Below are positions 20,087 through 53,740 of a stretch of 64,000 nt of DNA, one piece after another; position 1 is the first letter of the stretch; the number at the start of each line of letters is the position of its first letter. The DNA lies in IMG/VR virus record IMGVR_UViG_3300037067_013349; one strand, written 5' to 3'. The notes under the pieces were generated by a model. It had not been told where the DNA came from and did no database searches. It saw nothing but the letters and a program-made list of their open reading frames with translations. Position numbers and translations under genes: made by a program. This DNA comes from an uncultured virus (IMG/VR IMGVR_UViG_3300037067_013349). Lineage: Duplodnaviria > Heunggongvirae > Uroviricota > Caudoviricetes.

Positions 20087-20440
20087 ATGACTCGCAACCG
20101 CATTTGCATCGTCCGTGAGACGCTTCTTGGCACGTGGCAGGAACGTCTTTTGCAGAAATTGGGAAAGGACTTCAAAGTTCAGCAGACCAACACCACCTTC
20201 TCGGTCATGAAGAGGTGCAAGGTCTTCCTTTGGACCAGGACACCGAAGACGGGATGGGTGGAAGTTGCCTACGTGGCAATCAAGGACGTCGAGAGCCTTC
20301 ACAAGGCATTGAATCCGGTGCTGACCGCTCACACGAAGGAAGATTTGGAGCGGCTGCAAACGAAGCTGGACAAAGAGCCGGTCGCCGACCAATGGCGAAT
20401 GGAAGTCCAACCCGATCCGACCGTTCCACCGAAGAAATAA
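20087..20440 (+). CDS. Hypothetical protein, paralog of 20896-21258
   Basis: WQERLLQKLGKDF vs WQDRLLSKLGRSF. Confidence 0.75.
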   Translation: MTRNRICIVRETLLGTWQERLLQKLGKDFKVQQTNTTFSVMKRCKVFLWTRTPKTGWVEVAYVAIKDVESLHKALNPVLTAHTKEDLERLQTKLDKEPVADQWRMEVQPDPTVPPKK

Positions 20441-20468
20441 CGCACACACAACACACAGGGAGAACATC

Positions 20469-20894
20469 ATGGCGTTAGTTCGAGGCAAGCCTTGGAAGGA
20501 ATACCAGTACAAACACGAAGATCCGAATCCGGTCATTTCGGATTGGAACGGCCAAGCCCTTATTGATTGCACCAAGAAAGGACTCGTCTTGCATATCAAG
20601 GAAAAGGGCGGGGCCGTCAAAAGAGTCCGAGTAAACGCAAGAACGCTTGATGGCTTGCGTAGCGTCATCTGCAGATACTACGGATGGTCACGATGGCACG
20701 ATGAAGCTGTTGAAAAAATTGCACGTGCCGAAGCGGAAAAGCAAGTCCGTGAAGAAATGGGCGACGAGATCAAGCGTCGAACGAGGGAATTGAAGAATCT
20801 CATCGAGTCCGGCATCGACGCGAAGTTGGCGGGCGTCAAGCTGCCCCGGCGAACGAACCGCAAAGCCGAAGGTCAACGGGAATTGGTTTTATAG
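20469..20894 (+). CDS. Hypothetical protein ending GQRELVL
   Basis: ACACACAGGGAG leader. Confidence 0.75.
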   Translation: MALVRGKPWKEYQYKHEDPNPVISDWNGQALIDCTKKGLVLHIKEKGGAVKRVRVNARTLDGLRSVICRYYGWSRWHDEAVEKIARAEAEKQVREEMGDEIKRRTRELKNLIESGIDAKLAGVKLPRRTNRKAEGQRELVL

Positions 20895-20895
20895 C

Positions 20896-21258
20896 ATGCT
20901 ACGAACCATTATTATCGATGATTCAGAGCCGAACTTGGTGAGTACCTCATGGCAAGATCGGCTATTGTCGAAGCTTGGTCGCAGTTTTGCCATCATAGAG
21001 GACGACAGGAAATACTACCTGATCAGAGGCAACAAAGTACTGGCGGAGTTTGAGAAGTACATCATCAAGAAACTCAATCCGATGACAAACCCGCTAGTTG
21101 TGGTTGAATCTATCAAAGTCCGAGACGAATTACACCGGCTCCTGAAACCAGACAACTTAACCCATTGGACGCCACGACGGAAGCTTTGGTCAATCCAAGT
21201 AGGGCTAACAAAAGATTGCGGATTCAGTTCGAGAGTGCGGTGGTATGCTAAACCATAG
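20896..21258 (+). CDS. Hypothetical protein, paralog of 20087-20440
   Basis: Shared motif. Confidence 0.7.
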   Translation: MLRTIIIDDSEPNLVSTSWQDRLLSKLGRSFAIIEDDRKYYLIRGNKVLAEFEKYIIKKLNPMTNPLVVVESIKVRDELHRLLKPDNLTHWTPRRKLWSIQVGLTKDCGFSSRVRWYAKP

Positions 21259-21583
21259 GAGTGCCACGATGTCCGATGGCCCGGAAGTTTTAGAACCGCT
21301 TGGACTCAACAAGTCAGAGATATATGCCAAATGCATGGAGGTCGATGGTGATGTAGTTTTCTCCATCAAGCAGACAAGCGGTACTGTTGAGATAGTCTTG
21401 AATCAGGCCCAATTAAGCGATCTCTACAGCGCGACGGCACGTGCCATGCATTGGTCGAGGATACGACGCGAAAGGCGTCAGAAAGCCGAATGGAAGAAAA
21501 GACAGGAGAAGCAGCAGAAATTGATCGTTCAGACTGGAGAGCGGCAGTTAATACTTCTCTCTCGCCGTGCTATAATGGAGTAA
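21245..21583 (+). CDS. Hypothetical protein
   Basis: ORF; likely start at MSDGPE. Confidence 0.65.
   Translation: MLNHRSATMSDGPEVLEPLGLNKSEIYAKCMEVDGDVVFSIKQTSGTVEIVLNQAQLSDLYSATARAMHWSRIRRERRQKAEWKKRQEKQQKLIVQTGERQLILLSRRAIME
21548..21576 (+). promoter_or_regulatory. Conserved promoter
   Basis: TTAATA-N17-TATAAT, CCGTGC. Confidence 0.85.
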
Positions 21584-21606
21584 ATCCAACACACAGGAGA
21601 GATGAC

Positions 21607-21816
21607 ATGATCGAACGCATCGAGCAGAAGCTTGACGTAATGGCCCTCGAAAGCAACGATGAGATTATCCGCGTCGTGGTCGAGGACGACAAGGGACGAC
21701 GCGCCATTGCTTTTCTTTCCGCGAAGCTTGTAAGCGGGCGTGTCAAATTCACGCTCGTCACGAAGAAAAACAAAGGCGAAGGGAAGGCATGCTCTACCGC
21801 CGACTGGATGTTGTAG
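21607..21816 (+). CDS. Hypothetical protein
   Basis: ACACACAGGAG leader. Confidence 0.7.
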   Translation: MIERIEQKLDVMALESNDEIIRVVVEDDKGRRAIAFLSAKLVSGRVKFTLVTKKNKGEGKACSTADWML

Positions 21817-22006
21817 TCGGCTGCGTGTGCTGAATCGGGCAAGCAGAGCAGATAATAAGCTGGCCTTGCTCGTACTTTATCGTTCCGATAGTGTTGCCTA
21901 CGCTGTCCTTCATCTTGGACAGCGTAGAGCCGATGATGACTACTTTTTCTTTCATCCCAGTTAAGATACCAGATTCGCTGCTTTGTGTCAAGTAGTCAAG
22001 CGGCGG

Positions 22007-22035
22007 TTAATATAGCCCGCTCCTCGTGCTATAAT
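22007..22035 (+). promoter_or_regulatory. Conserved promoter
   Basis: TTAATA-N17-TATAAT, TCGTGC. Confidence 0.85.
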
Positions 22036-22067
22036 GGGGTAGATTTCAAACACACAGGAGAGACGAC

Positions 22068-22364
22068 ATGGCCACGAAGTTTTCCCTTACCGTCGAAGCG
22101 TTGCCAGAGGAAGAAACCCCCGAACAGTCCGAGAAACGCACAAAGTCCGCTCCCGGCTACGCGAAAGCCGTCCGAGAGGTCAAGAAGACGGCAGAGGGCC
22201 GCTGGGGTTGGTGTGTGGTGAAGATTACCGCCAACGTGAAGGGAAAGGAAGGGACGGCATTCCTTAGCAACTGCTCTTACAAGAATGCCGAGGATTTCGT
22301 GAAGACGAGCGGCTATTTCCAACAGATGGTCGAGGAAGCAGTCGACGAAGCTGTCGGCGGTTGA
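22068..22364 (+). CDS. Hypothetical phage protein
   Basis: ACACACAGGAG leader; WGWCVVKITA...LSNCSY...GYF.QMV.EA. Confidence 0.75.
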   Translation: MATKFSLTVEALPEEETPEQSEKRTKSAPGYAKAVREVKKTAEGRWGWCVVKITANVKGKEGTAFLSNCSYKNAEDFVKTSGYFQQMVEEAVDEAVGG

Positions 22365-22373
22365 GTATTTATA

Positions 22374-22402
22374 TTAACAGAGGCCGCCTTCCGTGCTATT
22401 AT
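22374..22402 (+). promoter_or_regulatory. Conserved promoter
   Basis: TTAACA-N17-TATTAT, CCGTGC. Confidence 0.75.
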
Positions 22403-22435
22403 TGGGTAGGCGAAACAACACACAGGAGATCCATC

Positions 22436-22879
22436 ATGTCACATGTTGTGGTGATCGAATTGCAGGTCAAGGATCTGCAAGCCCTAGGCGAAGCCGCCAA
22501 GCAATTGGGTGGGGAACTCGTTATCGGTCAGATGACCTTCAAATGGTATGGTCGTTGGATGAACGACTACCACGGCCAAGACGCAGCCTATCGCAAGATG
22601 AACCCGGAAAAGTTCGGGAAATGCGATCATGCCGTGAAGCACCCGAAATGCAAGTATGAGATCGGCGTGGTCCGGCAAGAAGACGGCTCTTTCACCGTCT
22701 TGGCCGACGAATGGGGAGAAGGTGGCCTGCCCGCTGTCTTCGGTAAGGGCATGCACAAACTCAAGCAGCGTTATGGTGCTTGTGTCGCTGCCAAGACCAT
22801 GCGGCGTCAAGGCTTCTCTGTCAAAGAGGTCGACGACGAGGAGACCGGCTATCTCCGTCTCGTCTGTTCCCGCAATTAA
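22436..22879 (+). CDS. DUF1257 (Ycf35-like) protein
   Basis: MSHVVVIELQVKDLQAL..A, YEIGVV..DGSF...D.WG, LKQRY, GFSV.E. Confidence 0.8.
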   Translation: MSHVVVIELQVKDLQALGEAAKQLGGELVIGQMTFKWYGRWMNDYHGQDAAYRKMNPEKFGKCDHAVKHPKCKYEIGVVRQEDGSFTVLADEWGEGGLPAVFGKGMHKLKQRYGACVAAKTMRRQGFSVKEVDDEETGYLRLVCSRN

Positions 22880-22901
22880 CACACAGGAGGCGACCACAGT
22901 C

Positions 22902-23096
22902 ATGAGCGAACGAATCATTATCAGAATCGATCCCAGCGGCAATCCGACCATCAAAGTCGAAGGGCACCCCGGCCCCGGCTGCAAGAACATCACCAGAGCC
23001 GTCGAGAAGGCACTCGGAAGCGTCACGAGCGACAAGACAACGAACGAATACTCGTTGCCAGCACAAGCGGAGGCGTCACGCCATGTCAGCCATTGA
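22902..23096 (+). CDS. DUF2997 protein
   Basis: IRIDPSG...KVEG..GPGC..ITR.VEKALG.V..D..T.EY. Confidence 0.85.
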   Translation: MSERIIIRIDPSGNPTIKVEGHPGPGCKNITRAVEKALGSVTSDKTTNEYSLPAQAEASRHVSH

Positions 23097-23331
23097 CATT
23101 ATCTGTGCCCCCGATGGCACCTTGACCGCGATTTGGGACGACGGGCTTGCTCCACTTGCTTCCGAAGGTCAGGCTACGATTACACGTGTAAGCCACGTGG
23201 AGCCGACCGAGGAGGGCGAGTGGACCGCCGACATGAGTCCCATCAACGGCCCGGTTCTCGGCCCGTTTCCATTGCGTCGTGAAGCCCTCGACGCCGAGTT
23301 GGTTTGGCTACGTGAAACGATGGGGTTCTAA
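23083..23331 (+). CDS. Conserved hypothetical of the DUF1257/DUF2997 module
   Basis: ITRVSHVEP...W.ADMSP..GPVLGPF..R.EALDAE..WL. Confidence 0.75.
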   Translation: MSAIDIICAPDGTLTAIWDDGLAPLASEGQATITRVSHVEPTEEGEWTADMSPINGPVLGPFPLRREALDAELVWLRETMGF

Positions 23332-23333
23332 TC

Positions 23334-23639
23334 ATGATGGAAGCAGAAATCAAACGGGTGCTTGAGTGTCTTGATCGCCTTTTCGAAGAGAACGAATCTG
23401 GCGAAACGCTCCTAGGGCGAATTGAAGCCATCCTGCAGGAAGCGATAGGCAAGGATGAAAAGGTCATCAGAGAGATAGTGCAAAATTTGCCGTCGTCTGA
23501 ATCGGAGCTACTCCGATTCCACATTCTTGATAGCTCTCGTGACAACTTTCGCGCTTTGATGGGCTATCTCGATATCTTCCGAGACCAGCTTGAAACTGCC
23601 CGGACCACACTATCGACTTGTGTTGGTGACGACGATTAA
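23334..23639 (+). CDS. Hypothetical helical protein
   Basis: ORF. Confidence 0.65.
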   Translation: MMEAEIKRVLECLDRLFEENESGETLLGRIEAILQEAIGKDEKVIREIVQNLPSSESELLRFHILDSSRDNFRALMGYLDIFRDQLETARTTLSTCVGDDD

Positions 23640-23664
23640 TGTGGGTCGGCTGCCGTGCTATTAT
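23636..23664 (+). promoter_or_regulatory. Conserved promoter
   Basis: TTAATG-N17-TATTAT, CCGTGC. Confidence 0.75.
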
Positions 23665-23710
23665 TTAGCTGAGGGCGGGAGGTCCGCCCCAAACACACAG
23701 GAGCACGATA

Positions 23711-25282
23711 ATGTTATCATTTACCGAGCAGTTTATTGCTGCGCGTCGAGTTGGCGTCCCTCTTATCGGCATCGAGTCCAGCGATCCCGCTGCGACGATG
23801 AAGACCCTCGCAAATGAATGCTGCGATATTCCTCAAGCTGCCCCTCTCCTGCTCTGGAACTCGGCTAGCGGTATCGTCGGCCTAAATCCGGCTGGTGAAA
23901 GGGCTGCAGCCGTCCTCAATACCGACGCAGAAATCAATCTGCCCTTTGTTTTCCTGACGGCCATCGCCGACATCAAAGGTGCTCCCAAGCATTCCATCAT
24001 CGGCATGCAAGCCGCCGACGATTGGTTCGACAAGCCGACTATTCGACAGGCGATTTGGAATCTTCGCGACAACTTCAAAAAGACGGGCCGTACCCTCGTC
24101 ATGCTGGCCGAGGTCATCCAACTGCCGTCAAGCCTCAAGAACGACGTCATTATCATTGAGGAGCCGTTGCCTGACGAGGAGCAATTGGCGGGTTGCGTCA
24201 AGAAACTCGATACGCAAGCCAGTCAGTGCGACTGTGCCGGACACAATACCGCTTGCAAAAAATGTGGTGGTACCGGCATCAAGACCAAACGGCCCCTATG
24301 TTCCGAGGAAACGGTTGGGCGCGTCGTTGAGGCAGTCAAAGGCTTGCCATACTTCGGAGCCGAACAGGTCGTAGCCATGGCCCTCCGTGGCACTCCCATT
24401 GCAGGACAAAAGCCGGAAAGTTGCATCGACCTTGAACATTGCTGGACTGCCAAGCGCAAACAGGTCGAGCAGACGAGGGGGCTTTCGATACATCGCGGCG
24501 GTGAAACCTTCGCCGATCTGGGTGGGTTAAAGCAAGTCAAGGAATACCTGACCCGAATCATGACGGGCCGGAAAGCCCCAAAGCTTATCGTCTGGTTGGA
24601 TGAAATTGAAAAAACCGGACTCGCGAATCGGGGAGACACTAGCGGCGTCAATCAGGACCAAGAGGGGACTCTATTGTCGTGGATGGAAGACTACGACGTT
24701 TTCGGCGTTATGCTTCTTGGTGTCCCTGGTTGCGGCAAGTCGGCCATCTGCAAAGCTGTGGGTGCTCAATTCGATCGCGTCGTCATCCGGATCGACCTTG
24801 GTTCGATGCAAGGATCTTTAGTCGGTCAAAGCCAGAACAACATCCGGGCCGCGTTGAAGGTCGTACAGGCTATCGGTGGCTCTGATACGCTCTGGTTGGC
24901 GACCAGCAATAGCATCAGCGGACTATCGTCAGCGATGAAGTCACGATTTACTGACACGTTCTTCTTTGACCTGCCACCGATCGAAGAGCGTCAGCCGATT
25001 TGGAAAGTATGGCTTGACAAATATGGGCTGAAGGAAAAGACGACACCCAACGATGAAGGGTGGGTCGCCCGCAACATCAAGAAATGCTGCGATAAAGCCT
25101 TCCGCATGGATGTCCCACTCGAAGAGGCTGCCGCCTACATCACACCGGTCGGCTTGACAGACCGGGAAGATATTCAATCATTGCGAAAATCGGCGGACGG
25201 TCGTTATCTGTCCGCCAGCCATACGGGCGTTTACAAGATTCCGAAGGATATCGAGCCGGAACGAGCATTGAACATCGATTAG
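23711..25282 (+). CDS. Ycf46-like AAA+ ATPase with permuted Walker B/Walker A order
   Basis: FADLGGL, IVWLDEIEK, GVPGCGKS, LVGQSQ, LATSN, SRF..FFFDLP. Confidence 0.9.
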   Translation: MLSFTEQFIAARRVGVPLIGIESSDPAATMKTLANECCDIPQAAPLLLWNSASGIVGLNPAGERAAAVLNTDAEINLPFVFLTAIADIKGAPKHSIIGMQAADDWFDKPTIRQAIWNLRDNFKKTGRTLVMLAEVIQLPSSLKNDVIIIEEPLPDEEQLAGCVKKLDTQASQCDCAGHNTACKKCGGTGIKTKRPLCSEETVGRVVEAVKGLPYFGAEQVVAMALRGTPIAGQKPESCIDLEHCWTAKRKQVEQTRGLSIHRGGETFADLGGLKQVKEYLTRIMTGRKAPKLIVWLDEIEKTGLANRGDTSGVNQDQEGTLLSWMEDYDVFGVMLLGVPGCGKSAICKAVGAQFDRVVIRIDLGSMQGSLVGQSQNNIRAALKVVQAIGGSDTLWLATSNSISGLSSAMKSRFTDTFFFDLPPIEERQPIWKVWLDKYGLKEKTTPNDEGWVARNIKKCCDKAFRMDVPLEEAAAYITPVGLTDREDIQSLRKSADGRYLSASHTGVYKIPKDIEPERALNID

Positions 25283-25302
25283 TCCTCCGATACCTGTGTG
25301 TT

Positions 25303-25342
25303 CTCCCGGCAGGAGGTTGCTCGTCGTGACCCCTGCCGGGAG
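25303..25342 (+). terminator. Hairpin after ATPase
   Basis: CTCCCGGCAGG/CCTGCCGGGAG stem. Confidence 0.55.
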
Positions 25343-25353
25343 TCTCTATATCA

Positions 25354-25617
25354 ATGATAGTTGATCACGATACCGTTGAGCAATTCAAGGCGCTAGGGGC
25401 CGTTTCCATTGGCCGTATCATGCTGCCAAAGCGGTCTTATCAATATGGCGTCATACTCGAACCGTCTAACGATATCGTCCACTTCTTCGCTGCCGATGGT
25501 CTAGAAATCGGCTATTGGACGGTTATCTCGCACCGATTTGGTCCGGTCATTTTCGAGCAGCGTCGAAACTGGCATCCATCTATCAAGGCCGGATTGCTCT
25601 TAGAGCCTGTCAGTTAA
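25354..25617 (+). CDS. Hypothetical protein
   Basis: ORF. Confidence 0.6.
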   Translation: MIVDHDTVEQFKALGAVSIGRIMLPKRSYQYGVILEPSNDIVHFFAADGLEIGYWTVISHRFGPVIFEQRRNWHPSIKAGLLLEPVS

Positions 25618-25642
25618 TAGTCACCGCTTGTTGTGCTACTAT
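25614..25642 (+). promoter_or_regulatory. Conserved promoter
   Basis: TTAATAGTCACCGCTTGTTGTGCTACTAT. Confidence 0.75.
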
Positions 25643-25689
25643 CGGGCATGGTGGTTACTATTTCTCGGCTTTGTTTGGGAGCTTGTGCT

Positions 25690-25914
25690 ATGCTGTACGC
25701 TGATATGCTGGCCGCGTGTCGTGAGCGTGGATTGATCGACGATGCCACTGCCTTGGTGTTCCAACATCGCGTGGACGTCTGGGTCGTGTTCGACAGGCTG
25801 ATTGACGATTATCGGCTGTTCGTCGGCCCTCACGGCAACTATGTCGTCGGAGAGGGGAAGCGGTATCAAATCGTCAAGGTGGTTAGACATAAGCCCCGCA
25901 AGAGGGATAAGTAA
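25690..25914 (+). CDS. Hypothetical protein
   Basis: GGGAG RBS. Confidence 0.6.
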   Translation: MLYADMLAACRERGLIDDATALVFQHRVDVWVVFDRLIDDYRLFVGPHGNYVVGEGKRYQIVKVVRHKPRKRDK

Positions 25915-25946
25915 ATCGATCAATATAGGTGCTACATTGATCGAGA

Positions 25947-25975
25947 TTAATAATTCCCATGATTCGTGCTACTAT
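25947..25975 (+). promoter_or_regulatory. Conserved promoter
   Basis: TTAATA-N17-TACTAT, TTCGTGC. Confidence 0.8.
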
Positions 25976-26014
25976 TTTCCAGACGGCAACAATAGTACAC
26001 ACAGGAGCAATGAA

Positions 26015-26974
26015 ATGACCGCTACCGAACAAATCCAGCAAGCCCAAGAAGAGGACAAGATCGATATCCTTAGCAAGACGACGTGCCTCTTGTTACGGTT
26101 CCACAAGACTGGCCTGATTCGCAAGGGCAATATCTCCAAAATCCAGACGGAAGCCAACAAAAAGCGTCTTGGATTGCACAAGAAAATCCTCACCAGTGAG
26201 AACTACGACAGCATGATGCTTTGTGCCCGTGACTGCCGCCGATACGCAGTCAAGAGACAGGTCCCCGGTTCCCCCTTTGCAGAAGGGACTCATCTTGTGC
26301 CGTGCCCGCTCGTCGATGACCTGAATGAAAAAATTGCCAACGCAACAGCGGCCTACAACAGATGGGCCGACCTGTTCGTTGCCGAGTACGAGTCACTGGT
26401 CAAAGAGGCCAAAATCGAACTCAAAGACCAGTTCGACCCCAGCAATTATTACGACGTGAGCACGGAAGCTGGTCGACTTGCCCTTCGCTCCAAGTTTTGG
26501 GTTGAGCGTCGTTGGTTCGACTGGTCGCCAACGAACGAGTCAAAGGTCAGCAGTGTGATTGCTGAACAGGAACGGAAGCAGCAAGCAGACGAAATCAAGA
26601 ATATGGCCATGGAGGTCAAAGCCGCTTTGCGACTGGGGCTTAAGAGGCTGGTTGACCATCTGGTTGAGCGGTTGACACCCGGCCCCGGTGGGAGCCGCAA
26701 GGTCTTCATGGCTTCCACCATTACGAAAATCGTCGAATTTCTGGAGTTGTTCTCTGCCCGCAATGTCTGTGGTGACCGAGAATTGGCCTTGCTGGCCGAC
26801 CAAGCCAAAGAAGTACTTGATGGTCAAACCCCTGAATCGATCAGAGGGAACGACGAAGTACAAACAGCCGTCGCTGCACGTATGTCAGAGGTAAAGGAGA
26901 ATCTTGATAAGCTTCTCCGAGATATGCCCGAACGGGTTATCGACCTGGATGACGACGACGATGACGACGAGTGA
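26015..26974 (+). CDS. DUF3150-like helical protein
   Basis: ACACACAGGAG leader; GTHLVP, F..EY..L..EAK.EL...FDP.NY, LV.HL.ERL, RKVF..S.I. Confidence 0.65.
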   Translation: MTATEQIQQAQEEDKIDILSKTTCLLLRFHKTGLIRKGNISKIQTEANKKRLGLHKKILTSENYDSMMLCARDCRRYAVKRQVPGSPFAEGTHLVPCPLVDDLNEKIANATAAYNRWADLFVAEYESLVKEAKIELKDQFDPSNYYDVSTEAGRLALRSKFWVERRWFDWSPTNESKVSSVIAEQERKQQADEIKNMAMEVKAALRLGLKRLVDHLVERLTPGPGGSRKVFMASTITKIVEFLELFSARNVCGDRELALLADQAKEVLDGQTPESIRGNDEVQTAVAARMSEVKENLDKLLRDMPERVIDLDDDDDDDE

Positions 26975-27329
26975 TTTTTTGTGGGTGCTTTTTCGGACAC
27001 TCTTTTGGCCCTGCATAATAGCTAAGAGAGTGTCCGAACGGCTTTTTCGGCCTAAGATTTTCCTTAATCCGACAACCGATAATTATCCGTCTTATTTCGA
27101 TGTTCCGATAGATTTAGATTCATCGACAGATTCAACGACTAAATGGACCCATCCTGTTTTTGGCGATCTGATCCAAAAAGCAAACGGAGCCAGCGGATAC
27201 ACTCACGGATTTCAGGTTCCGTCACCTACAATGGCTCCTGGTCCGCCAATACGGCCAACGCTAGTAAGACAGCAAAAGCCAAAAATCGACATTAACTTGG
27301 AAGGCGACCGAATGATAAATCTGGATTAG
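26961..27329 (+). CDS. Hypothetical protein ending GDRMINLD
   Basis: ORF overlapping upstream stop; N-terminal hydrophobic segment. Confidence 0.6.
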   Translation: MTTSDFLWVLFRTLFWPCIIAKRVSERLFRPKIFLNPTTDNYPSYFDVPIDLDSSTDSTTKWTHPVFGDLIQKANGASGYTHGFQVPSPTMAPGPPIRPTLVRQQKPKIDINLEGDRMINLD

Positions 27330-27354
27330 TCGAGTGTGCTTGTCGTGCTATAAA
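27326..27354 (+). promoter_or_regulatory. Conserved promoter
   Basis: TTAGTC-N17-TATAAA, GTCGTGC. Confidence 0.75.
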
Positions 27355-27383
27355 TGGGGTAGACTTCAAGCACACAGGGAGAT

Positions 27384-27797
27384 ATGACAATGCCAAGTTT
27401 TACACCAACTACGACGATTTCCGAGATCAAGCTATTCGATATCGTCCAGCTTTACGGCGATCGACAGCAGATGGTCGTCGTCGACATCAAGCCGAATCGA
27501 CCAGCCAACCCGTTTGTTGGCGTACTGGTCAAAGGGCAAGGTGCCCAATACAAGTTCGGTTACAAGCATCGCCCGACCGTCGTCGGCCATGCCAATCCTG
27601 ACCATCCGGCTTTAATCGCCATGCGACGTAAAGCCGAACAGCGGAGTGGTATAACGATGCCACAGATGGAGCCTATCAACCAGGAAGCAAGGGCGGTATT
27701 CTTCCACCTTCTCGATGCCGTCGAAGCTGGTGATATGTCGAAGGCCAAGATTCTTGCTGCTGCCATCCGGACAATGCCGGGATACAGCAAGAATTGA
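27384..27797 (+). CDS. Hypothetical protein
   Basis: CACACAGGGAG leader. Confidence 0.75.
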   Translation: MTMPSFTPTTTISEIKLFDIVQLYGDRQQMVVVDIKPNRPANPFVGVLVKGQGAQYKFGYKHRPTVVGHANPDHPALIAMRRKAEQRSGITMPQMEPINQEARAVFFHLLDAVEAGDMSKAKILAAAIRTMPGYSKN

Positions 27798-27822
27798 GTG
27801 GCGTGTTGAATCGTGCTATAAC
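27794..27822 (+). promoter_or_regulatory. Conserved promoter
   Basis: TTGAGT-N17-TATAAC, TCGTGC. Confidence 0.7.
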
Positions 27823-27931
27823 AAAGTAACCGGTACCAGTGCCGCCGTCGCATCGCGACAACTTCCTGGTTTTAGGGCATCGCGAAGTGAGAGGCGACAG
27901 CGAAGTCCACTTCCAAACTGGAAACAAAATC

Positions 27932-28354
27932 ATGGCAATGACCGAAAACGACAAAATCGCGAAATACGGCGTGGTTGTGTGCCACGTTCAGAGCCGCACT
28001 GATCCGGGCGAAGAGCCTTATAAGATTCGGCTCAAGGACGGAATCCACCATTGCAACTGCAAGGGGTGGATTTTCTCCAAGGAAGTTCCGAAGTCGTGCA
28101 AGCACATCAAGGCTTATCTGGCCGAAAAAGGCAAGACTCAGCAGGTTGCTGAGCTTACCGAAATCCAGATTACCGAGAAGTGCCTACGAACAGCGGGCTG
28201 CTATGAGCCTATCAGAAATTCGTGTGCCGACAGCAAAGCATTCCAACACAAGTTGACTCGTCTGGCACAAGCACTCTTGCCATATCTCGGCGGCGGCGGT
28301 CCGGTCGAAGAGGTCGGAGGCGACGAAATCGTCCGCACCATCTATCTGGATTGA
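27932..28354 (+). CDS. SWIM zinc-finger protein ending VRTIYLD
   Basis: Y.I....HCNCKGW...CKH. Confidence 0.75.
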   Translation: MAMTENDKIAKYGVVVCHVQSRTDPGEEPYKIRLKDGIHHCNCKGWIFSKEVPKSCKHIKAYLAEKGKTQQVAELTEIQITEKCLRTAGCYEPIRNSCADSKAFQHKLTRLAQALLPYLGGGGPVEEVGGDEIVRTIYLD

Positions 28355-29326: not shown

Positions 29327-31354
29327 TTAGGGAAGTTCGCGCTCACCGTCTAAAATGGCCCGAAGAGTACCAACGGCGATGATTTTGACGCCGAGTTCTT
29401 CGGCCTTCTTCGTCTTATTCGATGATGATGTTGGGTCCTTCTGGACGAGATAATTAAGCCCTTTGCTGACGCCACTCTTGATGATGCCGCCTCGTGCAAC
29501 CACTTCATCGAGAAAATCGCGGGTGCCAGTGAAGCAGAACGTTGATCCGGCGATAGCCTTTGGCCCATCATCTACATCCGCCACAATAGTCGGTTGCTGC
29601 ACTTGCGTGTGCGGCTGGACGGTGACGCCGACGTCGAGCAGGTCTTCGATGATAGGCCACGCCTTGTTGAGTCCATCCGTAATCGTCGTCCGCATCGTGT
29701 CGCCAGGAATTAGCGTCAGCTTTTCTGTGTCGAGCCAGTCATCAAGCGTGGTCAGCCCCATCTCATTGGCGACGATTTCGGCCCGACGCTTACCAAGAAG
29801 AGGAACACCGAGAGCACCGAGGAAGCTACACAGTGGAAGCGATTTGGATTTCTCGATTTCCTGCAGCAGTGCAGTCGTCCGACTGTTGCCAAGTCTGCTC
29901 TTGCTTTCGCCGATAGGCAGATCAATAAGCTGCTCTGCCGTCAATCGATAAAGGTCAGCAGGAGTCTTGACGAGTTCGTCAGTAAGAGCCTTGAGAACGC
30001 CGTCGCCAACGCCCATAATGCCAGCATCACGAATGTAATGCTTGACCTTGCCGATGCTCTGGGCTGGACAATCGTTGCCACTACAAAGCGTGACAGCACC
30101 TTCCTTGTCTCTCACTGTCCTGGTTGTTGGAGCACCACAGACCGGACACGTAGTCGGCTCTGCAATCGGTTGCCGGTCTGCTGGCATCCCGACAACGCGG
30201 ACGATTTTCGGGATGACGTCGCCCTGACGAGCAATCTCGACTATATCGCCGATGGCGACATGGGCTGCTGATGGATTCTCACTTGCTTCATTCCAGTTGT
30301 TGAGCAAGACATTCGTCACCGTCACGCCGCCGACAAACACCGGTTCAAGAACAACAGTAGGAATGATGGCACCGGTGTGACCAACAGTAATAGTCACATC
30401 GGTGACGCGAGTCATCGCCTTTTGCGTGGCAAATTTAACCGCACGGCCATACTTCGGTCTTAATGCGTCTTTGCGGTCCTTGGTGATACGCTTCTGCATC
30501 TCGACGTTATCAATCATGACGACGAGTCCGTCAATTTCAAACAGCAGAGAATCTCGCTGGCCTTCCACATCGGCGAAGTAGGCATTCATTTTCTCTACCA
30601 CTTCATCGCGCGTGCCGGTGAGCGTAACAGACTGCACCGGTGAAAATCCCAGCTTCTCTAACGTCTTGAACTTCGCAGTAAGCGATGGAAATTCGACACG
30701 TTGATCAATGCAGTTGAATGCGACGAAGCGGATTAGTTCGTTTTGTGTGCCGTCGATTCGACCGATGATGCCGCTGCCGACGTTGCGTGGATTGGTGAGC
30801 GTTGGATCTTGTTCCTTCAGTTGGCCGAATTCGGCCTTGTATAGGATTGCCTCACCACGGATAGTACCGGTGAATGGAACCGGTAAAATAGTCGGTGCAC
30901 CTGCCCATTTTACAGCGTTTGCTGTTAGTGATTCACCGATTTCACCGTCGCCTCGACTAATCGCTTCCATTAAAATTCCCTTATCATAGATAAGGGCAAT
31001 GCTGTTGCCGTCCATCTTCAAAGAAACATTGATGGCGGCATTCTCGACACCCAACAAAGCAAGAGTTTTGTCATACCAATCAGCAAAGCCGTTGATGCCG
31101 TCGTCCGTATTGTTGAGCGAACCCATCGGGATCGTATGGGTTCGCTTGTCTCTCATATCAGCCGGAGAGTACGGGGTGCCGACACGGGTAAGACGAGGGT
31201 CAGCAGGACAGATTACCCGCAACTCACTCATCATTCCTTCATATTCATCGTCATTGACGGGCGACTCGCACCCCGGCGTATAGTAAAGTTGCGCTGCACG
31301 ATCGATAGCTGACCGCAATTGTGCGAGCCTAGCTTTTTCGCTTAATTCTGCCAT
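29327..31354 (-). CDS. ligA: NAD-dependent DNA ligase
   Basis: YY..D.EY domain Ia, KMDG, SRGDG.IGE, NPRN, IDGLV, CPVC..C Zn finger, HhH, BRCT (FCFTG...SGVSK). Confidence 0.97.
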   Translation of the reverse strand: MAELSEKARLAQLRSAIDRAAQLYYTPGCESPVNDDEYEGMMSELRVICPADPRLTRVGTPYSPADMRDKRTHTIPMGSLNNTDDGINGFADWYDKTLALLGVENAAINVSLKMDGNSIALIYDKGILMEAISRGDGEIGESLTANAVKWAGAPTILPVPFTGTIRGEAILYKAEFGQLKEQDPTLTNPRNVGSGIIGRIDGTQNELIRFVAFNCIDQRVEFPSLTAKFKTLEKLGFSPVQSVTLTGTRDEVVEKMNAYFADVEGQRDSLLFEIDGLVVMIDNVEMQKRITKDRKDALRPKYGRAVKFATQKAMTRVTDVTITVGHTGAIIPTVVLEPVFVGGVTVTNVLLNNWNEASENPSAAHVAIGDIVEIARQGDVIPKIVRVVGMPADRQPIAEPTTCPVCGAPTTRTVRDKEGAVTLCSGNDCPAQSIGKVKHYIRDAGIMGVGDGVLKALTDELVKTPADLYRLTAEQLIDLPIGESKSRLGNSRTTALLQEIEKSKSLPLCSFLGALGVPLLGKRRAEIVANEMGLTTLDDWLDTEKLTLIPGDTMRTTITDGLNKAWPIIEDLLDVGVTVQPHTQVQQPTIVADVDDGPKAIAGSTFCFTGTRDFLDEVVARGGIIKSGVSKGLNYLVQKDPTSSSNKTKKAEELGVKIIAVGTLRAILDGERELP

Positions 31355-33350: not shown

Positions 33351-33373
33351 AATCGGTGAGGAGATTTTTAGCA

Positions 33374-34123
33374 ATGGCTAAGAAAACCACAAAGTCTGCG
33401 AAACCGAAACCCACCACAGCCGCCCCGAACCTCTTCGCGAATGCCGCAAAGGCCGCTGCCTCGGCCCCCAAGAAGACTAGCGGGACAGTCATCGCGCTCC
33501 CTAAGGAGCTAGATACCGAGGGCAAACTCATCGGCGACTCGAAGCTGCTGAATGAGGCAGTCTCGAACGCCATCGAAGCGGCGGCGGAGGAGAAGACGGC
33601 GAAGACCAAGGGAACTCTGGCGAAGACCAAACTGATGGGCTTCGCTCAACAAGAAGTCGTCAAGCTGTATGCCAAGCTTGGTGTCCCTCCGACAACGCCG
33701 GTCAGTGTTGTCAATCACAACGGCGAATCGGTCACGTATGTGATGGCCGACAAATCGCAGCAGAACCCCATCAGCCCCGAACAAATCGCCATGCTACGAG
33801 AGCTTCTGGGTGACGAGGGGGCAGCACAAGTCGTCGATGAACGGACGACGTTCTTTTTCGACAACGCAACGATGGGCGAAAAAGCCGCAAACGACGAGAA
33901 GACGGTGTTCGACATCGTTTGTGAGCACGTGAACGCAACGATTGCGACTGATCCACGGTTGAGCGACGAGCAGAAGGCCAATCTGCTCAAGAGCACGGTC
34001 AAATCGTTCCTCAAGCCCAACACGTTGAATCGCATCGCGGAGTTGTGCGGTTCCAACGCCGCGAAGATTGGACAATTCTATGAAGCGGCGGGCACTGCCT
34101 GCGTCCGCTCCATCAAGGTATAG
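33374..34123 (+). CDS. Hypothetical protein with K/A/P-rich N-terminal tail
   Basis: GAGGAG RBS. Confidence 0.85.
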   Translation: MAKKTTKSAKPKPTTAAPNLFANAAKAAASAPKKTSGTVIALPKELDTEGKLIGDSKLLNEAVSNAIEAAAEEKTAKTKGTLAKTKLMGFAQQEVVKLYAKLGVPPTTPVSVVNHNGESVTYVMADKSQQNPISPEQIAMLRELLGDEGAAQVVDERTTFFFDNATMGEKAANDEKTVFDIVCEHVNATIATDPRLSDEQKANLLKSTVKSFLKPNTLNRIAELCGSNAAKIGQFYEAAGTACVRSIKV

Positions 34124-34986: not shown

Positions 34987-35015
34987 TTAAGCCAGATATG
35001 CATTCGTGCTATAAT
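34987..35015 (+). promoter_or_regulatory. Conserved promoter
   Basis: TTAAGC-N17-TATAAT, TTCGTGC. Confidence 0.8.
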
Positions 35016-37902: not shown

Positions 37903-37987
37903 GGCCGTGTGGTGGAATGGCAGACACTAGGGATTTAAAATCCCTTGCTCATAACAGAGCGTGCCGGTTCGAATCCGGCCACGGCTA
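37903..37987 (+). tRNA. trnL: tRNA-Leu (UAA)
   Basis: GGCCGTG/CACGGCT acceptor, AGGGA-TTTAAAA-TCCCT anticodon arm, long variable arm, GGTTCGAATCC; CCA not encoded. Confidence 0.93.
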
Positions 37988-37989
37988 CT

Positions 37990-47065: not shown

Positions 47066-50000
47066 TTATTCCGGAATAGCCCAAACAGCTACTCCTCCGC
47101 TGACTCTTAAAATATAATCACCATCTGTAGTGGGTGCCCCTGGTATCCCTGAAGACACACCTGTTGCACCAGCCGCCCCTGAGGCACCAGCAACGCCTGA
47201 GGCACCGGCAGCTCCAGATGCCCCGTCTAATCCAGCCGGGCCGGTTGCGCCAGGATCGCCACCACCAGGTCCAGTAGCACCAGATGCTCCAGGAGGGCCA
47301 GAAGCTCCACCAGTCTCTCCTTGAGGACCGGTAGCACCAGTGTATCCTATTTCTCCTGTAGCACCTGGATCACCTATGCCAGAAGCTCCATCGATGCCAG
47401 TGGCACCTGTAAGGCCAATCGCCCCCGTTGCACCTGAAGCTCCCGAAGGACCAGTAGCACCAGTAAATCCTACAGCTCCGGTAGCACCCTGTAACCCTGT
47501 GGCTCCAGAAGCCCCATCTACACCTGATGCTCCTTGCACGCCAGCCCCAGTAGCACCAACATATCCAGTAGCACCGGTAGCTCCTGTCTCGCCCTGAGGG
47601 CCAGAAGCTCCACCAGTTGGACCCTGAGGACCGGTAGCCCCTGTCGCTCCATCTAACCCGGTAGCGCCAGGCTCACCTGCACCGGTAGCACCTATTTCTC
47701 CTTGCGGACCAGTAGATCCTGTGGCACCAGTTAAACCAGTAGCTCCGGCAGATCCATACAAACCGGTAGCCCCAGTGGCTCCAGCGACACCCGTGGCTCC
47801 TGGAGGGCCGGAGGCTCCGCCAGTAGGACCTTGAGGACCAGTGGCTCCTGTCTCTCCCTGCGGACCTGAAGCTCCGCCAGTATCTCCCTGCGGTCCGGTT
47901 GCGCCTGAAGCACCATCTTGGCCTGCTGATCCAGTTGCTCCGCTAGCACCTCTGGGGCCTGTAGAACCTGTTGCACCAGTAGCTCCGGTATAGCCAGTAG
48001 CTCCTATCGGGCCGCCGCTTGGACCTGTGGCACCGGTAAGCCCCGTTGCACCATCTACACCAGTGGCACCAGAGGCACCTCGGATACCTGATGCTCCATC
48101 CACACCTTGGGTACCTGTAGCTCCTGTTGCTCCCGGATCTCCTGGAGGTCCAGAAGCTCCACCAGGATCGCCTTGAGGGCCGGTAGCACCAGTAGCACCA
48201 TCGAGGCCGGTAGCACCAGTAGCACCATCTGATCCTACGTAGCCAGAAGCCCCAACAGGTCCAGTAGAGCCAGTCGCACCTGTTTCACCTTGTGGCCCGG
48301 AAGCCCCACCAGGATCGCCTTGAGGGCCGGTTGCTCCAGTAGCACCATCCTCACCTTGAGGACCGGTAGCTCCTGGAGGACCAGAAGCTCCACCAGTCTC
48401 TCCTTGAGGACCGGTAGCACCAGTGTATCCCGTTGCACCAGTAGCACCATCAGATCCTACGTAGCCAGATGCACCTGGTAATCCTGTGGCTCCATCGATA
48501 CCAGTTGCACCGGTAGCACCATCTGAGCCTATATAGCCTGAAGCACCTGGTAATCCTGTGGCTCCAGATACACCATCAATACCAGTTGCACCAGTAGCAC
48601 CATCTGAGCCTATATAGCCTGAAGCACCAGGAGCACCAGTGGCTCCACTGGCTCCAGATGCTCCAGGAGGGCCAGAAGCTCCACCAGTCTCTCCTTGAGG
48701 ACCGGTAGCACCTGTGTACCCCGTTGCACCAGTGGCACCATCAGCTCCCGTCTCTCCTTGTAATCCGGTTGCACCTGAAGCCCCATTTATACCTGTAGCT
48801 CCGGGATCTCCTATACCGCTTGCTCCCTGGATACCTGTAGCGCCAGTAGCTCCGCTAGCTCCATCAGGCCCTTGAGGGCCGGTAGCACCAGTAGCACCTA
48901 TACCGCTTGCTCCCTGGATACCTGTAGCGCCAGTAGCTCCGCTAGCCCCGTCTATACCTGTAGCTCCGGGATCTCCTATACCGCTTGCTCCCTGAATGCC
49001 GGTAGCTCCTGAAGCACCTGAAGCACCATCTACACCGGTAGCACCAGTAGGACCTATTTCTCCTTGTGTGCCAGTGGCCCCTTCAGAACCTGTGGCTCCT
49101 GAAGCTCCGCTAGCACCATCTATACCTGTAGCTCCGGGATCTCCTACGCCCGAAGCACCCTGAATGCCGGTAGCACCAGTAGCTCCGCTTGCTCCATCAA
49201 TGCCAGTAGCACCAGTAGGACCTATTTCTCCTTGAACTCCTGTTGCTCCAGAAGCACCACTAGCTCCGTCGATGCCTGTAGCGCCCGTGTCTCCGACACC
49301 AGAAGCACCTTGCACGCCAGTTGCTCCTGAAGCACCTGAGGCTCCATCAACACCTGTTGCTCCGGTATCTCCTACACCGCTTGCCCCTTGGACTCCTGTA
49401 GCACCAGAAGCTCCACTAGCTCCATCGGGACCTTGCAGACCTGTTGCTCCGGTATCTCCTACACCGCTTGCTCCTTGGACGCCTGTAGCACCAGAAGCTC
49501 CACTAGCACCGAGATTACCCTGTGACCCTGTAGCCCCTATTTCTCCTTGCGGACCGGTAGATCCTTGGACACCAGTAGCACCAGAGGCACCGCTAGCTTC
49601 TCTGACGCCTGTAGCACCAGCAAGACCGGTAGCTCCAGTATAACCCGTAGCACCAGTGGTTCCGGTAGAAGACCCGCTTGCTCCTTGTGGTCCAGTTGCA
49701 CCTATATCCCCTTGGATGCCGGTAGCTCCTGTAGCTCCCGAAGCTCCGCTAGCACCTATTTCTCCCTGTGGGCCTGTAGCACCAGAAGCACCTGGAGGGC
49801 CAGAAGCTCCGCCAGTCTCTCCTTGAGGACCGGTAGCACCAGTGTATCCCGTTGCACCAGTTGATCCAGTAAAACCGGTAGCACCAGAAGCACCACTAGC
49901 TCCATATGGGCCAATCAAACCAGTAGCACCAGTAAAGCCTGTGGCACCCGAAGCTCCGCTGGCCCCGTCTACGCCGGTTGCACCCATCTCCCCGGTGTCG

Positions 50001-53000
50001 CCTTTTAGACCGGTTGCGCCAGTTTCACCAGTAGCACCTGGAATCCCTGTGGCTCCGCTGGCACCTGAAGCACCTGGTGGTCCTGAAGCTCCACCAGTCT
50101 CTCCTTGAGGACCGGTAGCACCTTCAATACCAGTTGCGCCTGTCTCACCTGTTGCGCCTGTTTCTCCCTGTGGGCCTGTAGCACCAGAAGCACCACTAGC
50201 TCCGTCAATACCAGTAGCACCAGGATCTCCTATACCACTAGCTCCCTGAACACCCGTTGCGCCTGAAGCACCAGAGGCCCCGTCAATGCCGGTAGCACCA
50301 GTATCACCTATACCAGAAGCACCTTGTACGCCTGTGGCTCCTGAAGCTCCGCTAGCACCAGGGATACCTTGTAATCCAGTTGCACCGGTGAGGCCGACAC
50401 CAGAAGCACCTTGTACGCCTGTGGCTCCTGAAGCACCAGATGCTCCATCGGCACCGGTAGCCCCTATACCACTAGCTCCTTGTACGCCTGTGGCTCCTGA
50501 AGCTCCGCTAGCACCATCAATACCAGTTGCGCCGGTGAGACCTGTCTCGCCTTGAATACCTGAAGCTCCGTCTATGCCTGTAGCACCAGTCTCTCCTTGC
50601 GGTCCGGAAGCTCCACCAGTCTCACCCTGCGGACCTGTTGCACCTGAAGCCCCATCAATACCTGTAGCACCGGTTGATCCTTGCGGACCAGTTGAACCTG
50701 TAGCACCAACTAAACCTGTGACGCCTGTGGACCCGGTAAGACCAATGGCACCCGTAGCACCTCTGGTTCCAGACGCTCCTTGGACACCGGTAGCTCCGGA
50801 AGCACCTGATGCGCCAGGCGCTCCGGAAGCTCCTCCAGTTTCTCCCTGAGGGCCGGTAGCCCCTTGCACGCCTGTGGCACCAGAAGCTCCGCTAGCACCA
50901 GATATACCTGAAGCTCCACTGGCTCCAGATGCTCCAGGAGGGCCAGAAGCTCCACCAGTTGGACCCTGAGGACCAGTGGAACCAGTTGCACCTGTCTCAC
51001 CTTGCGGACCAGATGCACCAATTCCGCTAGCTCCCCTTATACCTGTTGCCCCGGTAGCTCCTTTAGCTCCAGTTGCACCTGTCAGACCGGAAGCACCAAT
51101 ATAACCAGATGCACCGAATATACCGGTGGAACCAGTAGCACCAGCAAGACCTGTAGCACCAACTGGCCCGCCACTTGGACCTGTGGCACCTGTAAGTCCG
51201 ATTGGGCCTGTTGAACCGGTAGAGCCAATCGGGCCTGTTGAACCAGTGGCACCTGTAGCACCAGTGAGGCCAGAAGCGCCCTGAGGGCCGGAAGCTCCAC
51301 CAGTTGGGCCAGTAGCACCTGTATATCCAGAAGCACCTGTAGCACCTCCGATACCGGTGGCACCTGTCAATCCCTGTGCACCTGTAGAACCAGTTGCGCC
51401 TGTTGGACCTCCAGCAGGGCCAGTAGCACCGCTGGCACCTAGCGGACCTGTAGAACCAGTTGCTCCAACAGGGCCACCACTGGGACCGGTTGCTCCCGTT
51501 TCACCCGTTGCGCCTGTTGAGCCATTTATGCCGTTAGTACCTGATGCACCAGTTACTCCAGATGCACCATGGATGCCAGTTGCACCACGTATGCCAGTTG
51601 CACCTGTCGCACCAGACGGACCTGAGGCTCCACCAGGATCTCCTTGTGGACCTGTTGCACCCGAAGCTCCATCATCTCCCGCTGCTCCTGTAGCACCTCT
51701 GGGTCCAGTAGCACCAGGAGAGCCTATACCCGTTGCTCCTGTGGCTCCGGTTGGGCCACCGGCAGGACCAGTTGCACCAGCCGGACCAGTTGAACCTGTC
51801 GCTCCTGTGGCCCCAGATATAGCTTGTGGTGTCCAGCCAAGATGGCCAGCACCATCAGTTTTCAGAATATAGCCAGTAGCTCCGTCAGCACTAGGCCATC
51901 GAAGATTGTCTATGTAAACATATGTGCCTGTACCACTAACGCCCAATCTCAGATTAGATGATATAGCATTGATTTGAAGATCTGATCCGCCAACCGAATG
52001 GATAATATTAACTTGTAACCCATCAACTTCATCATATTGAAAGACATTATCATCTATGAGACGGCCATGTGTACCAACAAATGGAATCCGTCCAGTAACT
52101 AATATCGTCCCATCATTTAAAACGAATCCTTTGCGAGCGTTATTTGTTGTAATGGTGAAATATAGATCATCATAAGTAAATTCGATCACTCCAGCTTCTG
52201 GTGTGGCTAGAACGCTACCGCTTGTCAATTTGATGGGGGCGGTACCAGGAGCTGCTTCACCTGCTGCTAGGTGTATCCTCGCGGTAGGATCGTAAATGCC
52301 TACCCCTAATTGGCGGCAGCTAGCAGTCGCACTATCGTTGGTTCGCGACCCTTCTAATATATTATAATAATTAGTAAGGAGATGCTGCTCATATTCTGGA
52401 GTTCCACTATTGTCTACTAATCTAACGGTGCCAAGCCATCGGTGTCCCTTATAATCACCAGATGTAACATATACCGGTGTCCCATTTAACGTTGCAATGC
52501 CGTCATCATCTACTTGTATCCAATATCCGGCTGCTAAATCATCAGCAAAAATGTTTGATGTATGGCTGACAACGCAAGCATAAACCGACGAAGCGTTTTT
52601 AGCTCTTGCACCAACGCCATATGAATGACTAGTTACCCAATCCTCATATCGAATTGACGACAGCGGATCATATGCAATGAACTTGATTTCGCCAATAGTG
52701 CAGAACCAATAGAAAGTACTGACATATTGGTGGAAGTACGGATAAGTGCATGCTGTGGCCTCAATCTTATAGTATCTATATTTTACATTATTGGAGAATG
52801 TAAAATATTCTGACCACGCATTCCATGGACTAGGAGGATCTATTTCTTCTCGCGTATCAAGTAAATCCCAATTTACATTATCATTAGAAGCCAGGATAGT
52901 CCAATCTCGTGGCAGAGAATTTGCTGTATGATCGCTATTCTCAAGCTTAGCTTTCCAAGCATATTTATTAATGGCTTTTTCATTTCCGGCCCCAAAATCA

Positions 53001-53740
53001 TAAATAATCCACATAGGGACCTGAAAAGGATCGCCAGGTGTATAATAATGATCACCAATCCGAACACCCCATCCAGAATTAGCAGCTTGACTGAATGCGT
53101 CCCATCCATATAATGGAGTATTGTATAAATCTCTGTATATTATCCCATGCGAACTTTCTATGACAATATTAGGGATGGGCGTATCAAAACCCGTCATAGC
53201 AGTGGTACAGGTATTGGTTCCTGGATTCGATTTACCATCAGCAGGCGTGAATTTCCAAGGTGCGAATTCTAACTCGAATGATGTGGGAGTCCGAAGAAAG
53301 GCGAAAACATCATATGTCCTATCATCTATAAGCACTGCACCATTCATATCTGTGGCGGTGTTTAGTGCAGATGGAGGAGTATCTACAAATATTAGATCCC
53401 ATAAGTCCGAAGATTGATTATATAATCGTATCTGATTCGATTGGACAAAATGCCAACTTAGAGTCGTAGCATTGAGAACCTTCAAATTGCCATCTACAAC
53501 ATTGCCGCCTGGCCCTGTAGCACCGGTAGCACCTGTTGCTCCTGTATAACCGGTAGCACCTGTTGCTCCTGTATAACCGGTAGCACCTGTTGCACCAGAA
53601 AGGCCAGTTATTCCAGATGCTCCCGTTAAGCCAGTAGCACCTGCAACACCAGTAGCGCCTGTTAAGCCGGTAGCACCAGGAGCACCGGAGGCACCGCCGC
53701 CGCTTGCACCGAATATAGGAAGAACACTAGTTGTAAACAT
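47066..53740 (-). CDS. Giant collagen-like fibre protein with discoidin/F5-8C-like and CBM5/12-like domains
   Basis: ~1550 aa of GAT/GAS G-X-Y repeats; WIIYDFG...[22 protein letters not shown]...Y.C...HTS. Confidence 0.9.

Follow-up and report, generated by a model that had tools for sequence, protein, structure and literature searches.

A short arginine-containing C-terminal tail on a phage tandem-AAA ATPase, its DUF3150-like neighbour and unrelated proteins: a candidate address tag

The 64,000-nucleotide stretch of the uncultured Caudoviricetes virus IMGVR_UViG_3300037067_013349 analysed here (the window, taken at its full length) has phage character and encodes a tandem-AAA ATPase, a DUF3150-like protein and several unrelated proteins that end in the same short peptide. 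As read from the protein ends, the consensus of this tail is [P]-x-R-x-h-x-h-[D/E]n, with h standing for any of I, L, V, F and M. The tail is selected at the peptide level and appears, to judge from its conservation, to be the native C-terminal ending of two families, the tandem-AAA ATPase and DUF3150. With moderate confidence, we consider it an address tag for a single shared site on a p97-like machine made of the tandem-AAA ATPase and of DUF1257, DUF2997 and DUF3150 proteins. A previous reading of the DNA alone (the sequence-only reading) had noticed the shared ends and proposed that they are a linear motif recruiting partners, and the ATPase itself, to a common hub.

The strict pattern R.[ILVMF].[ILVMF][DE]+ closes four of the 425 stop-to-stop frames of at least 60 residues in the whole window, and all four are real genes on the + strand between 23.7 and 28.4 kb (the ends in this and the following lists run up to the stop codon):

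23711-25282, + strand: tandem-AAA ATPase of 523 residues (Pfam AAA), ending PERALNID, with the tail RALNID at 25262-25279
26015-26974, + strand: DUF3150-like protein of 319 residues, ending PERVIDLDDDDDDDE, with RVIDL and the acidic run at 26933-26971
26961-27329, + strand: 122-residue protein of no known family, ending GDRMINLD, with the tail RMINLD at 27309-27326
27932-28354, + strand: SWIM-type zinc-finger protein, ending IVRTIYLD, with the tail RTIYLD at 28334-28351 after a Gly-rich linker

Among frames of at least 30 residues the pattern occurs in five of 1243, the fifth being a 43-residue frame at 25604-25735. The start of the 122-residue gene overlaps the acidic run of the preceding DUF3150-like gene, and nothing in Pfam, NCBIfam or PADLOC matched its product. 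Searches with phmmer, started from the window proteins that carry tails, recovered only each protein's own family, in agreement with the claim that they are otherwise non-homologous. Weaker candidates are found on four further proteins:

20469-20894, + strand: 141-residue protein ending GQRELVL (tail 20877-20891), weaker and without an acidic end
21245-21583, + strand: 112-residue protein with RQLIL at 21542-21556 (GERQLILL), followed by 8 residues, without an acidic end
20896-21258, + strand: 120-residue protein that begins MLRTIIIDD, with RTIIIDD at 20902-20922
33356-34123, + strand: 255-residue protein ending VRSIKV, a weak candidate tail; no Pfam match

All the protein ends quoted by the sequence-only reading are present where it had placed them. 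It had not noticed the tag at ORF ends outside about 20-28.4 kb, a + strand block of short genes; the four strict ends all lie inside this range, and the weak VRSIKV lies outside. The end GQRELVL is of the R-x-h-x-h-COOH type that is frequent among the ATPase homologues; phmmer found no relatives of this 141-residue protein in the fetched loci. The 112-residue protein is probably its paralogue, a tandem duplicate, given a collinear weak similarity between the two (E 0.052). The N-terminal RTIIIDD of the 120-residue protein is possibly an N-terminal copy of the motif. This protein is a clear paralogue of the product of 20087-20440 (E 5e-7), which starts MTRNRICIVRE and has not kept a motif like RTIIIDD. 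A two-gene cassette has apparently been duplicated in tandem across 20087-21583 (20087 with 20469, and 20896 with 21245), and the weak tail sits on the second gene of each copy.

Comparative analyses covered 38 loci, namely the annotated stretch of Tunturiibacter phage Tunturi_3 and 37 loci on viral contigs (L numbers below). For enrichment, the scope was the 64-kb window, the related loci and Tunturi_3. The tail is found on 38 of 589 ORFs (open reading frames) of at least 60 residues from the window and 18 related loci, where the frequency of this core at internal positions predicts 3.5 (Poisson 3e-26), in a set that was chosen by a crude longest-ORF rule and contains orthologues that are not independent; the 122-residue gene was excluded from it by the overlap rule. 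Enrichment of the motif at protein ends is seen both here and in the strict count for the window. The tail could in principle have arisen by chance, or as a nucleic-acid signal (a terminator, promoter or coupling site) whose letters encode the peptide by coincidence, and the last eight residues of the weak instance at 21245-21583 are indeed encoded by a promoter-like element (21566-21576). Against this, the motif codons vary from gene to gene (CGA, CGG or CGC for Arg; TTG, ATC or ATA and ATC or CTG for the hydrophobic residues), the DNA 3' of the stop codons is unrelated between the window genes, and the enrichment and conservation statistics oppose chance. The same is seen elsewhere: six tails of locus L010 are encoded with synonymous differences and followed by DNA that is unrelated, as is also the case in L014. 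Because the motif codons differ between genes, the constraint acts on the peptide and not on the DNA. An origin by chance or at the DNA level is, overall, extremely improbable, and for the four strong tails it is ruled out by their frequency (4 of 425 frames), differing codons and unrelated flanks.

Conservation of the tail is strongest at its arginine. In the ATPase, this residue (R518) is one of 22 invariant columns among 104 aligned sequences with identities down to 41%; R-x-h-x-h lies within the last 10 residues of 83 of 120 homologues, and at least R-x-h/A in 115 of the 120. Among DUF3150-like proteins, 25 of 26 members taken from the loci have the full motif, and the tail arginine is one of three invariant columns in these 26 sequences and the sole invariant column in an alignment of 130. 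A profile search of 1.84 billion representatives with this family yielded 11,974 proteins at E<=0.001; the motif is present in 112 of the best 150 of these, with the consensus P-x-R-[AK]-I-[ST]-[FL]-[DE]3. The Pfam family PF11348 (DUF3150) is matched by 15 of the 26 aligned relatives, and the window protein itself has no Pfam match. In a protein atlas, only DUF3150 or unnamed clusters dominated by viruses were found for the DUF3150-like protein; with a central representative as query, the plasmid and phage collections gave one plasmid and one phage (Tunturi_3) only, and a single-protein query of a genome collection returned no relative.

The ends of the other two strong tail-bearing proteins are conserved as well. 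The closest ATPase relatives come from two contigs of uncultured viruses, one of 364 kb (79% identity) and one of 388 kb (71%). All four tails are retained in the two closest relatives, while the linkers preceding them diverge; in the SWIM protein, for instance, the sequences are GGGGPVEEVGGDEIVRTIYLD, GGNGPALAMDTTNDIRTIWLDD and GGTGPALDTTALPEVGVIRTIYLD. More generally, SWIM orthologues end in IRTIWLDD, IRTIYLD, RKITFDD, RAIRLED or RAILLD, and the relative in L028 matches PF04434 (SWIM) at the cut-off. Counterparts of the 122-residue protein end in ERVICLD (L002) and PRVINLD (L003), again after diverged linkers. Conservation in orthologues, on which the sequence-only reading had made its proposal depend, is clear from the invariant arginines of the 104 ATPases and 130 DUF3150-like proteins. 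That the tag follows a flexible linker is also borne out, since the linkers are variable among orthologues or of low confidence in structure models.

The tail is not restricted to the proteins discussed so far. A full-length ATPase relative is present in 18 of the 38 loci, where it adjoins a tail-bearing DUF3150-like gene and usually DUF1257-type and DUF2997-type genes too. Most phages put their own tail dialect on additional, unrelated ORFs. In L010, the endings GRKFRDE, RRKFRDE and GRKFRNE are distributed over four unrelated ORFs and the DUF3150-like protein, with GRKMRD on the ATPase. Two ORFs of L014 end in ARLISLEGEE and ARLISLEREE, and two of L028 carry RAILLD. The tails of L015 are RAITLRDE, RSLSLGED, RAITFEDE and REFGLE, those of L016 RKFTLED and RKFNLE, and those of L005 RVVTFDD and RKITFDD, with SSVVTLEG, which has no arginine, on a third ORF. 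Tails of proteins from different families share 1.72 of 6 identical positions within a locus versus 1.14 of 6 between loci (permutation p 2e-4), in a set that includes some false positives. A Pfam scan of 24 extra tail-bearing ORFs left 18 without any match; the usable matches were SWIM, Toprim/primase-like and radical SAM-SPASM, and three more (WGR, Metal_resist and a zinc ribbon) fell below the cut-off.

This resemblance within a phage would also be expected if the tails of the ATPase paired directly with those of the clients, in an antiparallel ribbon of two strands that a platform might carry, without a separate receptor pocket. The motif is self-complementary: it has arginine at one end and an acid or the free carboxylate at the other, and its two hydrophobic residues share one face; it is the same on motor and partners, and its second hydrophobic residue is always followed by negative charge, from D/E or from the end of the chain. 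However, a six-residue ribbon is weak by itself, and the GRKFRDE-type variants of L010 have no second hydrophobic residue. We regard tail-to-tail pairing as distinctly unlikely.

Among 50,697 deposited phage records, the only match that extends over most of the ATPase comes from Tunturi_3 (34.5% identity). This phage is complete and cultured, and the genes of its four tail proteins are scattered over the genome:

gp63: ends RPFTFEV
gp96 (locus L001; PP885686.1 67395-68354): DUF3150-like protein, ends RKFHLEGEEF
gp131: ends RKIRLDNE
gp103: the ATPase, ends GRIIR

Deposited as an 'HNH endonuclease', gp96 is actually the DUF3150-like tail-bearing protein of the module. Such scattering of tagged genes is what one might see if the tail were read outside the module as a sorting signal, for packaging into the capsid, for a phage compartment or by a host hub protein. 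An end-tag common to unrelated proteins is likewise a feature of known cargo-loading systems, encapsulin cargo peptides being an analogous case. Nevertheless, across very diverse phages the tail belongs to the ATPase and DUF3150 families themselves, and no structural genes adjoin the module, so that sorting of this kind seems very improbable to us.

The ATPase was modelled with AlphaFold2 at high confidence (predicted local distance difference test, pLDDT, 92.4), with values of 63 and 46 for its last 13 residues. The best Foldseek matches of the model are p97, Rix7 and Cdc48 over D1 and D2 (E about 1e-12), and the best matches of the sequence profile are VAT, Cdc48 and p97. The first AAA domain is degenerate and has no P-loop; the second carries Walker A and Walker B and is the active one. 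A separate N-domain is absent: in the model, the first AAA-like domain begins as early as residue 4, and the alignment of homologues has no additional N-terminal residues. The ATPase N-domain, one of the hubs put forward by the sequence-only reading, is not present as a separate domain, and the protein starts directly with its degenerate first AAA domain. Searches of NCBIfam with the module proteins gave only P-loop-level matches to the ATPase. PADLOC, which covers known anti-phage defence systems, gave, for the ATPase, only a P-loop match to IetA or TRIP13 over 50 residues and no match for the other 10 proteins.

The second AAA domain has an unusual order of motifs. Its Walker-B segment VWLDEIEK (292-301), with D297 and E298 invariant, precedes the Walker A GVPGCGKS (337-344), and this segment is a transposed block within the AAA fold. 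The strand and helix of LIVWLDEIEK lie approximately 45 residues ahead of Walker A (window 24578-24742, ATPase residues 290-344). A distant relative in L035 has the usual Walker order, and its pairwise alignment with the window protein contains reciprocal gaps of 41-45 residues. Between the AAA domains, at approximately residues 174-194 (window 24230-24290), there is a zinc-ribbon-like insert C-x-C ... C-x-x-C-G-G-T-G, found only in some ATPase subfamilies of the alignment. In some homologues (P0001, P0002, P0067, P0079 and P0088), which are 690-860 residues long, the ATPase gene contains inteins, with the intein or homing-endonuclease domains PF14890, PF05203 or PF14528.

In the AlphaFold2 monomer models, the tails of the ATPase and of the DUF3150-like protein are low-confidence, undocked extensions of well-folded bodies. 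Exposed, disordered tails on diverse proteins, next to a motor with a p97-like unfoldase fold, could serve as degrons or threading starts, engaged by the ATPase pore in order to unfold the substrate, with or without a protease. It is hard to see such a role in a tag that is also present on the motor itself and on its near-constant DUF3150-like neighbour; moreover, a protease gene was not seen in the module, and a sequence-specific invariant arginine would be unusual for pore engagement. We therefore think a degron quite improbable.

Three further genes of the module lie upstream of the ATPase gene:

22436-22879, + strand: DUF1257 (Ycf35-type) protein, module core and candidate receptor (PF06868, E 5e-8, above cut-off)
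22902-23096, + strand: DUF2997 protein of 64 residues, module core and candidate receptor (PF11211, E 3e-10, above cut-off)
23083-23331, + strand: 82-residue protein, found with the module in roughly one of every three related loci

Among 61 DUF1257 sequences, M1 and S2 never vary, and conservation reaches at least 90% at H3, C63 and H65; in 20 DUF2997 sequences, G13, G24 and C27 are invariant. An iterated search over the 38 loci for the 82-residue protein gave 12 ORFs, including that of the window. Profiles of DUF1257, DUF2997 and the DUF3150-like family found nothing below E 0.04 among PDB sequences, i.e., no solved relatives. The AlphaFold2 model of the DUF3150-like protein (pLDDT 91.5, with 75 and 49 for the tail) consists of a small sheet and long helices.

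A second flavour of these partners occurs at many loci, as a DUF1257-like protein starting 'MPCY...' and a small DUF2997-like 'EILEDGTI...NH' protein (L002, 11593-12206; L005, 6192-7305; L006, L007, L009, L011, L017, L023 and L035). The small protein has a His-rich C-terminal run in seven of these nine loci (not in L023 and L035), which hints at metal binding. In L010 (11063-11740), the ORF with the DUF2997 frame first encodes, ahead of that frame, approximately 160 residues that have the look of a homing-endonuclease-type insert.

An exposed peptide with an invariant arginine is present on a motor, on its constant neighbour and on a changing set of unrelated proteins, and evolves in concert within each phage; these observations together argue for a common reader. 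In addition, the motor, by its fold, suggests the logic of p97 with its shared linear motifs, and it is for this reason that we favour an address tag. In such a scheme, each phage would append the tail, via a flexible linker, to unrelated client proteins, which in the window would be the SWIM zinc-finger protein, the 122-residue protein and probably the 141- and 112-residue paralogues. Every tail would be read by a single common site on the ATPase/DUF1257/DUF2997/DUF3150 machine, and this shared site would gather clients and motor, after which the ATPase may remodel, extract or assemble the clients. The binding of the tail to a receptor, the place of that receptor and the effect of the ATPase on clients are what we infer; the 'remodelling or assembly system' of the sequence-only reading would follow from the p97-like fold of the model. 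As to its linear motif and common hub, the motif is selected, conserved and co-varies within a phage as a common partner predicts; DUF1257, DUF2997, the 82-residue protein of 23083 or a part of the ATPase would be candidates for the hub, and the beta-strand addition proposed by the sequence-only reading a putative mode of binding.

Several observations weigh against an address tag. The receptor was not found by co-variation between the tail and the body of the ATPase: the signal is weak (best corrected pair z 4.2, rank 416 of 110,215), and the uncorrected and corrected mutual information highlight different regions and are confounded by relatedness. The ATPase tail is not docked in cis in the AlphaFold2 model. 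For the DUF3150-like model, Foldseek found nothing among solved structures at E<=0.001, and VIA-align found generic helical bundles only (Z<=8.9, residues 175-309). Most clients are without known function, so that no common task is visible. Finally, that the motor shares the tail of its putative clients is harder to reconcile with a plain 'client tag' than with competition, tethering or pairing.

An extension of the address-tag reading is that phages, and possibly cells, keep a programmable client list for a hitherto unrecognised p97-like machine, in which an R-x-h-x-h-acid ending of 6-8 residues is enough to enrol any protein. We put this forward tentatively and consider it rather unlikely. 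If it were true, the tails of motor and clients would either compete for one site or pair there, enzymes acting on nucleic acids and zinc-finger proteins (SWIM, primase-like) could be made to leave DNA or be handed over as required, and there would be a first mechanistic handle on the orphan genes ycf46, ycf35, DUF2997 and DUF3150.

A number of other features of the window were recorded. The promoter-like element mentioned above, CGTGCTATAAT (an extended -10 type box), has 30 sites in the window with at most one mismatch, versus 3.1 expected; examples other than that at 21566-21576 are 22025-22035, 22392-22402, 23654-23664, 27812-27822 and 35005-35015. Most copies are intergenic and oriented toward the downstream gene, and they separate the short genes of 20-28.4 kb. 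The G+C content is 0.50-0.55 at 18-40 kb versus 0.41-0.48 in the flanking sequence as far as 46 kb. Collagen triple-helix repeats (Pfam E 1e-175) make up an ORF of 2224 residues on the - strand at 47066-53740, which lies where the G+C content is 58%. Three more genes are listed here:

1206-2078: D123-family protein
29327-31354: NAD-dependent DNA ligase
37903-37988: tRNA-Leu(TAA)

The tail concerns four families of unassigned function, the Ycf46/Cdc48-like ATPase, DUF1257 (Ycf35), DUF2997 and DUF3150, and the DUF3150-like family alone comprises 11,974 representative clusters. One short peptide links the four, and it is open to synthesis and mutation and suitable as bait, which turns a conserved gene neighbourhood into a direct experiment on what binds the tail and what becomes of a tail-bearing protein. 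The tail also provides a sequence rule for finding clients of the machine in any phage genome, and Tunturi_3, with gp63, gp96, gp103 and gp131, is a cultured phage that carries the system.

In the full-text literature outside subscription journals, we found no account of the tail or of what the module does, and the literature found holds no published function for Ycf46, Ycf35/DUF1257, DUF2997 or DUF3150. One study describes clustering of DUF2997 with ycf35 in cyanobacteria (PMC4284462). The phage module resembles the Ycf46/Ycf35/DUF2997 gene set and DUF3150 on mobile elements, with DUF1257 and DUF2997 recognised by Pfam and DUF3150 via relatives; for the ATPase, the likeness to Ycf46 is the source label of one homologue ('SpoVK/Ycf46/Vps4 family').

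Among known peptide signals, the HbYX proteasome-docking tail is a hydrophobic-Tyr-X sequence at the extreme C-terminus, and it was rejected here since the penultimate Tyr is absent from the window tails and the family consensus. The beta-clamp binding motif, a pentapeptide of the Q-L-[SD]-L-F type, was rejected as well, as the invariant residue of the tail is Arg and a conserved Gln is absent. SUMO-interacting motifs consist of a hydrophobic core and then an acidic run, and the tail, with a hydrophobic beta-strand core followed by D/E (e.g., RVIDLDDDDDDDE), is similar to them in this respect. Unlike these motifs, it has an invariant Arg, and a ubiquitin-like fold was not identified in the module.

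The tail sequence of SspB ends in L-R-V-V-K. According to one source, SspB tethers itself to the AAA+ unfoldase ClpX through a flexible C-terminal tail (PMC13251409). The phage proteins likewise have a flexible C-terminal tail after a linker; in contrast to SspB and ClpX, their motor is not ClpX-like, has no ClpP partner and bears the tail too.

The closest parallel is with the type-II AAA+ proteins p97, Cdc48 and VAT, which, like the ATPase here, have two stacked AAA domains. In p97, cofactors dock at a few sites via short linear motifs (VIM, VBM and SHP), and with their PUB and PUL domains cofactors bind the disordered C-terminal tail of p97 itself (PMC5389986). The phage system shares with p97 the short linear motifs on unrelated partners and a motor whose C-terminal tail is unstructured. 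It differs in that the ATPase has no N-domain, a first AAA domain without P-loop and Walker B before Walker A, in that the partners DUF1257, DUF2997 and DUF3150 are without solved relatives, and in that its motif is a different one, identical on motor and partners.

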